Part shown: positions 36,250 through 39,325 of the stretch, piece after piece | How positions within the stretch are numbered: the stretch's first letter is position 1 | Layout: every line of letters starts with the position of its first letter | Origin: Escherichia coli | Lineage (GTDB): Bacteria; Pseudomonadota; Gammaproteobacteria; Enterobacterales; Enterobacteriaceae | Assembly: GCF_003334385.1 (NCBI RefSeq) | Contig: NZ_QOWN01000006.1 | Reading direction: 5' to 3' (one strand) | Length of the DNA stretch: 64,000 nucleotides | Translations under genes and position numbers: made by a program | Notes under the pieces: generated by a model | What the model was told of the DNA's origin: nothing | Databases searched by the model: none | The model's input: the letters and a program-made list of their open reading frames with translations, nothing else

Positions 36250-37530
36250 TCAATCAATTGCGCTTGTCATCAGTTCTCTTGCCGAATGCAGCCGGATATA
36301 AGCAACCCACGCCGCCAGCAACGTGAATGCCCCGGCAAACAGGAAGCAGGCCGCATAGCCAAAATGTTGAGCAACAACGCCACCGATAACGCCTGCCAGA
36401 ATGGCGATTGCCGCATCAGTACATTGAAAGAGGGTGAAGTCGACACCGGCCTGCAAAGGCGATGAAAGCGACATCAGCGTGGCGTAAAGACAGACCAGCG
36501 CGCAGGCCAGCGAAATGGACTGGACAATGACCAGACACTGGAGAATCTGCAGCAGCAGATGACCCGGCGCCATCATGAGCGTCATCACCACCGCCAGCAG
36601 CGCGATCCCCTGGACGCCATAAGCCGTCAACAGCGCTCTGCCGGGTGAGGTGTATTTCATCAGCAATCCGCCGGCCAGCGTTCCTGCTATGCCCGCTGCA
36701 ATATTGCCGCCGCTGAACAACGCGCCCAATGCGGACATGCTCAACCCATGATCCAACAACAGCGGTGCCAGAAGAGGCAGCACAAACCGCATGCCTGAAT
36801 TCAGCATCAATACCAGCAGTAAGCCCAGGCGCGCCTGCTTCCTCCTTAGCGCATAACCTAACGCCGGAACATGCAGGATAGTCGCTGTTCGCGTCGGCTC
36901 CGTAATGCGCCACAGCGGGAGTGACAGCGCCATAATCAGCACCGCCATCATCAGCATGGCGACAGGCCAGCCGGATGCCGCCGACAGCATCAGGAACACC
37001 CCGCCGCCGCACATCATTCCCAGATAGCTGCCGCCGACCTGCACGCTGTTTCCCCAGCCGTAACCCGTGCGGGTCAGTTGATCGACACAAAAGCCGTCGC
37101 TGGCGATATCAATGGTGGAGGCGACCGTGCCTGCCACCATAAACAGAACAAATAACGCGACGATTTGCGTATCGGGGAATCCCCCTTCTCGCCTAAACCA
37201 GCCAATCGCTGCGGCAATAGTCAGGATCGCCGCTAGCGCGACCTGACCACGCAGGATTAACATGCGGGAACGGCGTTCCTGGCTACCGGGCGGAAGCCGC
37301 CAGCGCTCGATCCACGGCGCCCAAATAAACTTCAGCGCCCAGGGCAGCATAAACAGGGTTGTCGCACCGGCAAGCGCCAGCGAACCGCCAGCAGCGCGCA
37401 CCAGCGCGGGTAAGGACTGCATAGACAGCGCCGATACCAGACTCTGCGTCACATAGACGCCGGCAATAGCAAAAATCACCCGCCCGGTCGTCAACGTCAG
37501 CGGTTTCACATTCGACTGAACATCACTCAT
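36250..37530 (-). CDS. ybtX: MFS-type inner membrane protein YbtX (Irp8)
   Basis: 426 aa from MSDVQSNVKPL; start ATG overlaps the ybtQ stop (ATGA); ORF track extends to 37653. Confidence 0.85.
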   Translation of the reverse strand: MSDVQSNVKPLTLTTGRVIFAIAGVYVTQSLVSALSMQSLPALVRAAGGSLALAGATTLFMLPWALKFIWAPWIERWRLPPGSQERRSRMLILRGQVALAAILTIAAAIGWFRREGGFPDTQIVALFVLFMVAGTVASTIDIASDGFCVDQLTRTGYGWGNSVQVGGSYLGMMCGGGVFLMLSAASGWPVAMLMMAVLIMALSLPLWRITEPTRTATILHVPALGYALRRKQARLGLLLVLMLNSGMRFVLPLLAPLLLDHGLSMSALGALFSGGNIAAGIAGTLAGGLLMKYTSPGRALLTAYGVQGIALLAVVMTLMMAPGHLLLQILQCLVIVQSISLACALVCLYATLMSLSSPLQAGVDFTLFQCTDAAIAILAGVIGGVVAQHFGYAACFLFAGAFTLLAAWVAYIRLHSARELMTSAID

Positions 37531-39325
37531 GCACCCACTCTCCAGACGCGGAAACCCCGTCGTCGCGCCACACGCGCGCGGCCATTTGCGCCTGCCACAG
37601 CGCCTGATAACGCCCATGATGTGAGAGCAATTGCGCATGAGTACCCTGCTCAACCACCTGTCCCTCTTCCATCACCAGAATGTTTCCGGCCCCGGCGATG
37701 GTGGATAAACGGTGAGCGATGATAATCACCGTCCGGTTGTAAACCAGGTTATCGATCGCTTTTTGCACCGCCAGCTCGCTTTCAATATCCAGCGCGGCAG
37801 TCGGTTCATCGAGAATGACGACTGGCGCGTTTTTCAATAACGCTCTGGCAATGGAAATCCGCTGGCGCTCGCCGCCCGATAGCTGGCCGCCCATCTCTCC
37901 CATTGGCGTCAGCCAGCCTTGCGGAAGACGGGAAATAAACTCAAGGCACTGCGCCGCGCGGGCGGCCTCTTCTACCTCCTGCCGCGTCGCCTGTGGGCGC
38001 GCGATACGGATATTCGCCAGCAGCGTGTCATCAAACAGCCAGACATCCTGGAAAACAACAGAAATCAGGCTATTGAGCTGTTCCGGCGTCAGGCGGCGAA
38101 TATCGACGCCGCCAATAGAAATCTGCCCTTGCTGCGGATCGGCATAGCGCATTAACAGTTTGGTGACGGTAGTTTTGCCTGCGCCGGAGGCACCCACCAG
38201 CGCGCTCATACTGGCTGCCGGGAACGTCAAAGAAACATGATTAAGCGCGTGGCCGTCGCCTTCTTCGTAGCGATAGCTGACGTTGTCAAAGCGGATATCG
38301 TAACGTTCCGGCATCTCGCTTTGCTCTGCGACGGGAAGCGGTGCTATCGCCATAAACTGCTCAATCCGTTGCAGGGCGCTGGCGATCAGTTCCACAACCG
38401 AGGTGTAGCTGATAAACATCGCCATCGGTTCTGCGAAGCGCATAATCATCGCGACGGCGGCAATCAAAAAGGCGAGGTTCAGAGTGCCCGTCACTACCCA
38501 GACGATCCCGGATAACACCACCACCTGTAGGCCCAACTCCACGACGCTGGCGATCAGCATCGTCGCGCCAGCGCCCTGACGGTGAGTGCGGGTCTGTAAG
38601 TTTTCCAGCGCATTGAAATGCGCCAGCAGCGCCCGGCTTTTATCGGCATCGCTGCCGCAGGTGCGCAATACCATCATCCCCTGAGCAAATTCAACGATAT
38701 CGCCGCTCAGACGCTGGTGCGCTTCCCCCAGCGTCTGCATTTGTCGCCGCATCGCCGGGCGGCGCCAGTAATAAAACGGCACCAGCAGAGGGAAGATCAG
38801 CAACATCACCAGCCCCAGCCGCCAGTCTATCCACAATGTCGCCAGCGACGCCGTCAGCGGCGTGACAATGGTGAGCAGCAAAATATTGGCTATCGCAATA
38901 ACATAATTGAGGTTTTCATCCACGCTGCCCAGCAGCAAGGCGTTCATTTCACCCGCCCTGCCGCGCTGGAGCTTCTCCAGCGGCACGCGGCGTAACTGCT
39001 CGCCAAGTCGCAGGCGCAACTCATGGGTGGCCTGCGCCAGATGACCACGGTATTCAAAGCCCAGGCCATACCAGCGTAGCACCAGCGTCACAATTGCGGC
39101 GACGCTGAAGGCCATAGCCCAGTTAAGAAGTTGCGGCGCGTCTCCCCGTAACAGCGCATCAATGATCGGATAAAGACAGGCAAAGGCGATCCCCTGCATG
39201 AATGCCGCCAGCAACAGCGCCAGCATACTGCGTCGCAGCATCCTGGCCTGACTGCCAACGCTGGAGATAAGCAGGCGCCAGATGACGCGCCAGGCCAGGT
39301 TATCCGCAGGATTATTGTCTTTCAT
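37523..39325 (-). CDS. ybtQ: ABC transporter permease/ATPase fusion YbtQ (Irp7)
   Basis: 600 aa from MKDNNPADNLAW; Walker A GASGAGKT, ABC signature LSGGERQR; overlaps ybtP end. Confidence 0.9.
   Translation of the reverse strand: MKDNNPADNLAWRVIWRLLISSVGSQARMLRRSMLALLLAAFMQGIAFACLYPIIDALLRGDAPQLLNWAMAFSVAAIVTLVLRWYGLGFEYRGHLAQATHELRLRLGEQLRRVPLEKLQRGRAGEMNALLLGSVDENLNYVIAIANILLLTIVTPLTASLATLWIDWRLGLVMLLIFPLLVPFYYWRRPAMRRQMQTLGEAHQRLSGDIVEFAQGMMVLRTCGSDADKSRALLAHFNALENLQTRTHRQGAGATMLIASVVELGLQVVVLSGIVWVVTGTLNLAFLIAAVAMIMRFAEPMAMFISYTSVVELIASALQRIEQFMAIAPLPVAEQSEMPERYDIRFDNVSYRYEEGDGHALNHVSLTFPAASMSALVGASGAGKTTVTKLLMRYADPQQGQISIGGVDIRRLTPEQLNSLISVVFQDVWLFDDTLLANIRIARPQATRQEVEEAARAAQCLEFISRLPQGWLTPMGEMGGQLSGGERQRISIARALLKNAPVVILDEPTAALDIESELAVQKAIDNLVYNRTVIIIAHRLSTIAGAGNILVMEEGQVVEQGTHAQLLSHHGRYQALWQAQMAARVWRDDGVSASGEWVHE

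Follow-up and report, generated by a model that had tools for sequence, protein, structure and literature searches.

Short start/stop overlaps within the ybt and fli operons of an Escherichia coli chromosomal segment

Introduction

That neighbouring operon genes in bacteria share a few bases at their stop and start codons is textbook knowledge. Here we describe such overlaps in the ybt operons of the Yersinia HPI (high-pathogenicity island) and in the flagellar fli operons, both of which lie on a 64,000-nt stretch of an Escherichia coli chromosome (RefSeq assembly GCF_003334385.1, contig NZ_QOWN01000006.1), referred to below as the window. The commonest overlap class in E. coli is −4 nt, followed by −1 and −8 (PMC10666635; review PMC12548453), and these three classes are enriched in a set of 1,695 species as well as in E. 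coli (PMC10666635; PMC12548453). Genome-wide, 707 of 2,987 unidirectional E. coli gene pairs (24 %) are spaced at −8 to +6 nt, and short-distance pairs are 4.5-fold enriched for subunits of heteromeric complexes (PMC10666635). Canonical coupling overlaps take the form of ATGA/GTGA, TAATG/TGATG and NTGNNTGA motifs, carry a Shine-Dalgarno (SD) sequence inside the upstream open reading frame (ORF), and often join genes for interacting partners (Huber et al. 2019, 2023; Brown & Wade 2025). Among native overlapping pairs, 13 of 14 tested were strictly coupled in translation (Huber et al.), a count that includes four of five E. coli −4 pairs (PMC6728339).

Both sets of operons have well-described counterparts. 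In E. coli K-12 the successive junction distances from fliF/fliG to fliO/fliP are −8, −8, −1, +18, −4, +104, +4, −4, +2 and −1 nt (supplement, PMC10666635), and cross-species medians are −8 for FliG/FliH, −4 for FliH/FliI, about −3.4 for FliM/FliN and FliO/FliP, and +2 for FliF/FliG (PMC10666635). The HPI has been described as four operons (PMC8725597), and its ybt locus in Yersinia pestis, uropathogenic E. coli and Klebsiella ICEKp is arranged as int-ybtS-X-Q-P / ybtA / irp2-irp1-ybtU-T-E / fyuA at tRNA-Asn. The overlaps in the window are real, ordinary and already known. They are short co-directional overlaps inside well-known operons, and they most likely couple initiation on the downstream gene to translation of the upstream gene.

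Results

Nine of ten overlaps fall in canonical registers

The four ybt junctions were read base by base and all co-directional gene pairs were then tabulated, using coordinates equivalent to the RefSeq annotation. Four ybt and six fli overlaps were obtained (Table 1). All ten had been listed in a first-pass annotation of the window, which also identified the genes correctly and singled out an interval, 37523-39325, that is exactly the ybtQ coding sequence (CDS). Nine of the ten are in the −1, −4 or −8 register, and the sole exception is ybtP/ybtQ at −14. The size of one overlap has an alternative reading: irp1/ybtU lies within an ATGATG motif, and initiation at the second in-frame ATG (58117) would give an overlap of 1 nt instead of 4.

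Contrary to the same annotation, the overlaps do not run throughout the operons but occupy four of the seven within-operon ybt junctions and 6 of 11 in the fli operons. The remaining junctions are spaced at +27 (ybtX/ybtS), +87 (irp2/irp1) and +3 (ybtT/ybtE) in the ybt operons, and at +18 (fliI/fliJ), +4 (fliL/fliM), +2 (fliN/fliO), +9 (fliP/fliQ) and +7 (fliQ/fliR) in the fli operons. Counting every co-directional pair in the window, 15 of 34 are spaced at −8 to +6 nt (binomial p = 0.007 versus the 24 % background). This excess is modest, and it is expected where long complex-encoding operons dominate a window, because short-distance pairs are enriched for heteromeric partners. Further co-directional overlaps, absent from the first-pass annotation, occur at yedE/yedF (4 nt), hprR/hprS (1 nt) and dcm/vsr (20 nt). 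Convergent overlaps of 3' ends are present at yedP/dgcQ (4 nt, 16187-16190) and yedA/vsr (12 nt, 20379-20390).

Every fli distance from fliF/fliG to fliO/fliP equals the value tabulated for K-12. The protein lengths match RefSeq, and gene order, product lengths and junction spacing are those of the K-12 flagellar class-2 operons; the only difference is strain-level nucleotide polymorphism (~98.6 % identity to reference strains). The fli half of the observation is thus already catalogued for K-12.

Table 1. Overlaps and other features of the window, and P/Q junctions (ybtP-like/ybtQ-like gene pairs) at nine diverged loci. Negative distances denote overlaps, in nt.
Feature	Position	Strand	Remarks
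Flagellar operons fliE; fliFGHIJK; fliLMNOPQR	3093-13542	+	
fliF/fliG, 8 nt (ATGAGTAA)	4744..4751	+	K-12 distance equal; FliG 1-331 to 1-331 with 8UMD_B
fliG/fliH, 8 nt (ATGTCTGA)	5732..5739	+	K-12 = −8; cross-species FliG@FliH COG-pair median −8
fliH/fliI, 1 nt (TAATG)	6418..6418	+	K-12 = −1; FliI 1-456 to 1-456 with 5B0O_A
fliJ/fliK, 4 nt (ATGA)	8250..8253	+	K-12 = −4
fliM/fliN, 4 nt (ATGA)	10952..10955	+	K-12 = −4; FliN 1-137 to 1-137 with 8UMD_D
fliO/fliP, 1 nt (TGATG)	11733..11733	+	K-12 = −1; FliP 1-245 to 1-245 with 6F2D_A
dcm/vsr, 20 nt	20830-20849	−	Longest co-directional overlap in window
tRNA-Asn	33572-33647		HPI start point
HPI integrase (int) pseudogene	33809..34724	+	347-bp internal frameshifting deletion, junction 33931/33932; blastn and tblastn against intact 1263-nt int of cM8a
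ybtQ CDS, 600 aa	37523..39325	−	RefSeq annotation of near-identical strain; intact ORF; 1-600 to 1-600 with PDB 8VSI_B, 6P6I_B
ybtQ/ybtX, 8 nt (ATGAGTGA)	37523..37530	−	ybtQ TGA 37525-37523, ybtX ATG 37530-37528
ybtP/ybtQ, 14 nt (ATGAAAGACAATAA)	39312..39325	−	ybtP TAA 39314-39312, ybtQ ATG 39325-39323
irp1/ybtU, 4 nt (ATGA)	58114..58117	+	irp1 TGA 58115-58117, ybtU ATG 58114-58116
ybtU/ybtT, 4 nt (GTGA)	59211..59214	+	ybtU TGA 59212-59214, ybtT GTG 59211-59213; AAGGAGG 4 nt upstream
L004, 90 % identity to YbtQ			P/Q −14
L005, Serratia symbiotica, 79 % identity to YbtQ			P/Q −4
L006, 78 % identity to YbtQ			P/Q −8
L011, 62 % identity to YbtQ			P/Q −4
L007, Halomonadaceae, 59 % identity to YbtQ			P/Q −4
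L008, Ralstonia, 59 % identity to YbtQ			P/Q −4
L009, Burkholderia, 57 % identity to YbtQ			P/Q −1
L010, Pectobacterium, 57 % identity to YbtQ			P/Q −1
L012, Thiorhodovibrio, 54 % identity to YbtQ			P/Q −4

The annotated start codons agree with homologous N-termini

How large an overlap is follows from where the start codon is placed, and for ybtQ, ybtX, ybtU and fliH the longest ORF begins at another codon than the annotated one. Some of the overlaps might then be artefacts of start annotation, the true start being located downstream and the genes not overlapping at all. Several junctions lend themselves to this explanation. The deposited YbtU/Irp3 structures (4GMF/4GMG) begin at query residue 2, which corresponds to the second ATG; in 6BA9, a shorter construct, YbtT starts at about residue 5; and fliO has two candidate starts, a GTG giving a 1-nt overlap with fliN (−1) and an ATG at +2. 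The start of ybtP is likewise disputed, being placed at 41024 by RefSeq/PGAP (570 aa) versus the ATG at 41114 (− strand) that yields the 600 aa of the YbtPQ structures, and neither candidate shows a clear GGAGG-type SD in the upstream sequence inspected.

The bulk of the evidence nevertheless runs against start artefacts. The alternative ybtU start still overlaps irp1 by 1 nt, and AAGGAGG is positioned 4 nt from the ybtT GTG versus 19 nt from the next ATG. End-to-end alignments (1-600) are obtained for YbtP and YbtQ against the chains of the YbtPQ structures (6P6I/8VSI). The first residues of FliG, FliI, FliN, FliP and YbtT coincide with those of orthologues whose structures have been solved (YbtT 1-267 to 1-267 with 6BA8). 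These N-termini, from Salmonella and Yersinia proteins, corroborate the starts as evidence that is not fully independent, PDB sequences being themselves derived from gene models. The positions of the YbtQ and YbtX N-termini are also kept in homologues of as little as 54-56 % identity, with Met1 of YbtX present in those at 82 % and 56 %; a 467-aa ybtX ORF was ruled out by this conservation of position. We therefore regard misplaced starts as a very improbable source of the overlaps.

Ribosome-binding sites embedded in upstream genes point to probable translational coupling

At nine of the ten junctions an SD inside the 3' end of the upstream ORF has an anti-SD duplex energy of −5.6 to −10.3 kcal/mol; the remaining site, that of fliG, is weak at −3.1 kcal/mol. 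The ybt motifs are GAGGTGG (SD-like) for ybtQ, GGAGAG for ybtX, GGAG for ybtU and AAGGAGG for ybtT, each at a proper distance from its start codon and with energies of −6.6 to −10.3 kcal/mol (−10.3 kcal/mol for ybtQ and −10.0 kcal/mol for ybtX). The two genes at each of these junctions are same-strand neighbours, which the annotation and, for the HPI, the published operon scheme (PMC8725597) place in one transcription unit.

At these junctions the downstream start coincides with or just precedes the upstream stop, and the SD is part of the 3'-terminal sequence of the upstream gene. In such an arrangement a terminating ribosome would promote downstream initiation by termination-reinitiation, helped by that SD. 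By an alternative route, the upstream ribosome would unfold the local RNA and so allow a new ribosome to bind. The outcome would be linked output of the partner proteins YbtP/YbtQ, FliF/FliG, FliH/FliI, FliM/FliN and FliO/FliP. Structures of such partners exist, namely the YbtPQ heterodimer, a FliH-FliI co-crystal (5B0O), and FliF-FliG and FliM-FliN fusions. The overlaps, the starts, the SD motifs and the conservation of the ybtP/ybtQ overlap (see below) are observed directly, and from them we infer coupling and its strength at each junction. The "tight coupling" described in the first-pass annotation had been deduced from spacing and not observed.

Accessibility of the ribosome-binding site (RBS) was predicted as the partition-function unpaired probability over positions −15 to +4 in a −99 to +30 context. 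The ybtX site is predicted to be sequestered (0.17, local minimum free energy −50 kcal/mol), and ybtX may thus depend on translation of ybtQ. The weak SD of fliG suggests a similar dependence on translation of fliF.

A number of observations weigh against coupling. The −14 register of ybtP/ybtQ is outside the canonical classes, and coupling efficiency is reported to drop as overlaps lengthen from −4 to −25 (PMC12548453). With its strong SD and a site predicted to be open (unpaired probability 0.80), ybtQ may initiate de novo, which would agree with the reported loss of coupling efficiency at overlaps longer than −4. Of the five E. coli −4 pairs that were assayed, bioBF proved uncoupled (PMC6728339), and irp2 and irp1, the core assembly-line pair, are 87 nt apart. 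Mean predicted RBS accessibility was 0.48 for overlapping, 0.49 for short-gap and 0.48 for leading genes (Mann-Whitney p = 0.51), a comparison of predictions that favours neither side on structure-gated coupling. Programmed frameshifting at the 14-nt overlap was also considered, and on reading the sequence (GGAAAATGAAAGACAATAA) no slippery heptamer was obvious.

The ybtP/ybtQ overlap is retained in diverged importers while its length varies

HPI copies are near-identical everywhere, so diverged relatives of YbtQ were sought. Nine loci with 90 % to 54 % identity to YbtQ were collected and their junctions re-read from the sequence (Table 1). These YbtPQ-type (IrtAB-like) heterodimeric siderophore ABC importers are likewise encoded by tandem half-transporter genes, and in all nine the ybtP-like gene is directly upstream and overlaps the ybtQ-like start. 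They differ from the window in register: the HPI lineage has −14, and the loci at greater distance have −1 or −4. The Q start is fixed among the closer relatives (L004, L005 and L006, together with the window), all reading into the same NLAWR motif, while the P stop varies, and the −14 register of the HPI lineage corresponds to a P stop shifted ~10 nt downstream. This register is common to the whole HPI lineage and visible in existing annotation, and it is the sole slightly unusual feature of the overlaps described here.

Conservation is weaker at ybtQ/ybtX. The 90 % relative (L004) has the −8 overlap, the junction is +2 in L011 (62 %), and in the other diverged loci the MFS (ybtX-like) gene is either absent or upstream.

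Such variation could mean that the overlaps are neutral by-products of compaction and stop-codon drift, and that ribosomes initiate on every downstream gene independently, using the SD of that gene. Under that explanation a fixed Q start and a mobile P stop would readily yield the range of P/Q lengths seen between lineages (−14, −8, −4 and −1), as well as a ybtQ/ybtX junction that changes from −8 (HPI lineage) to +2 (L011), and the strong SDs at ybtQ, ybtX and ybtT, the equal accessibility across junction classes and the bioBF precedent all agree with it. Drift does not easily explain why the ybtP/ybtQ overlap is kept in nine of nine loci down to 54 % identity, always in the −1, −4, −8 or −14 register. 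The weak fliG SD and the predicted sequestered ybtX RBS would both gain from an arriving ribosome, and 13 of 14 tested native pairs are strictly coupled. We consider neutral compaction unlikely and favour translational coupling. The diverged loci make a reasonable case that selection has kept the two half-transporter genes overlapping but has not kept the exact length of the overlap, and the conserved overlap would fit stoichiometric co-production of a heterodimeric ABC transporter.

A further variant concerns the HPI lineage specifically. Here the 14-nt ybtP/ybtQ overlap and the strong, accessible SD would be a derived state that relaxes strict 1:1 coupling by termination-reinitiation, so that the YbtP:YbtQ ratio becomes non-equimolar or dependent on conditions, with ybtX remaining strictly ybtQ-dependent. 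We hold this to be highly doubtful.

Overlaps do not vouch for operon integrity

The first-pass annotation had gone on to argue from tight packing that these operons have escaped recent insertion and decay. Its premise of intact genes is correct: a script check found every annotated-equivalent CDS in the window, including those of both operon sets, to be an intact ORF (irp1 and irp2 encode 3163 and 2035 aa, respectively). An insertion exactly at a junction would, moreover, destroy the overlap. Operon integrity is established by these full-length ORFs, not by the overlaps, which cannot vouch for it because they cover ~60 nt out of ~40 kb.

Two loci are counter-examples to the argument. Approximately 200 bp from the end of ybtS, the integrase gene of the window has lost 347 bp internally (Table 1); int of strain LSN03-016011/A is annotated as "frameshifted" over the same 916-nt extent. 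Decay is therefore present in the island, adjoining a tightly packed operon, and the island is probably immobilised in the window strain. The second case is the related strain cM8a, which has the same −14 (ybtP/ybtQ) and −8 (ybtQ/ybtX) overlaps, yet carries IS421 between ybtA and irp2; overlaps therefore coexist with an insertion in the locus. The IS421 transposase gene of cM8a (L003 42657-43769) is in the irp2 promoter region of an otherwise intact ybt locus and may alter expression of irp2-irp1-ybtUTE.

A 718-aa JGI metagenome protein combining ABC and MFS domains (P0035) was considered as a natural YbtQ-YbtX fusion at the 8-nt overlap and rejected. It consists of YbtQ residues 196-568, a 30-residue out-of-frame linker and then YbtX from Met1, and is a frameshifted read-through; no stop interrupts the ybtX frame over the ~40 codons upstream of its ATG. 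Indel errors or decay are suggested by another stretch of this protein that diverges locally. The read-through retains the junction sequence, and this too counts against overlaps as a sign of intact operons. In view of these cases, it is improbable that the overlaps constitute evidence against recent insertion or decay.

Genomic setting of the window

At one end of the window are yedE/yedF, followed by the flagellar operons and then by rcsA, dcm-vsr and hprRS; the HPI begins at the tRNA-Asn gene that comes next. The island contains an int remnant, ybtS, ybtX, ybtQ and ybtP (the ybt genes on the − strand), followed by ybtA, irp2, irp1, ybtU, ybtT, ybtE and fyuA on the + strand. This gene set and order, the asn tRNA insertion site and the adjoining P4-type integrase (a pseudogene) identify it as the HPI, and GC content rises from ~45 % to ~60 % across its boundary. 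The window differs from the known ybt locus in the int deletion and in YbtQ, which matches the cryo-EM construct, as does YbtP, apart from three residues relative to 8VSI_B (Q18L, Y359H and H529Y, given as PDB residue, position and window residue). These are presumably polymorphisms.

The island half (33000-64000) is 99.9-100 % identical to many E. coli genomes, and strain LSN03-016011/A equals the window sequence over 33000-43000. In contrast, no complete RefSeq E. coli genome is more than ~99.2 % identical to the backbone half (1-33000). Such a difference would fit a near-clonal island that has recently spread by horizontal transfer into a backbone that is divergent.

Two Hfq-binding small RNAs were matched in the backbone at the Rfam gathering threshold, DsrA (15091-15177, − strand, 102.5 bits) and RseX (23580-23669, + strand, 96.8 bits). 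The region 22750-26550 is variable among strains. In the window it contains yedJ, an intact drpB, a 362-aa porin ORF (23951-25039) and hchA; the matching stretch of LSN03-016011/A carries IS1 and a truncated HD-domain gene, and drpB of cM8a has an internal stop.

Discussion

The overlaps of the ybt and fli operons share with canonical coupling overlaps their sequence motifs, the placement of the SD inside the upstream ORF and the frequent pairing of genes for interacting partners. They depart from them in the 14-nt ybtP/ybtQ overlap, and coupling is here a prediction from sequence. A full-text search of the literature, from which the classic sequence papers were probably beyond reach, found no specific earlier statement on the ybtP/ybtQ/ybtX overlaps or on fliF/fliG translational coupling. 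RefSeq nonetheless already holds the ybt gene models with these overlaps, and the YbtPQ structures that have been published are based on them. The diverged YbtPQ-type importers (Serratia, Halomonadaceae, Ralstonia, Burkholderia, Pectobacterium and Thiorhodovibrio) share the overlapping pair of half-transporter genes with the HPI and differ from it in the ybtX-like MFS gene, which is absent, upstream or non-overlapping.

These results confirm the annotation of the segment and indicate that the overlaps are unfit as evidence of operon integrity. They also bear on genetic manipulation of both systems. Polar and frameshift effects are expected when ybtP, ybtQ, irp1, ybtU or the upstream fli genes are engineered, because each upstream gene carries the ribosome-binding site and the start codon of its neighbour.

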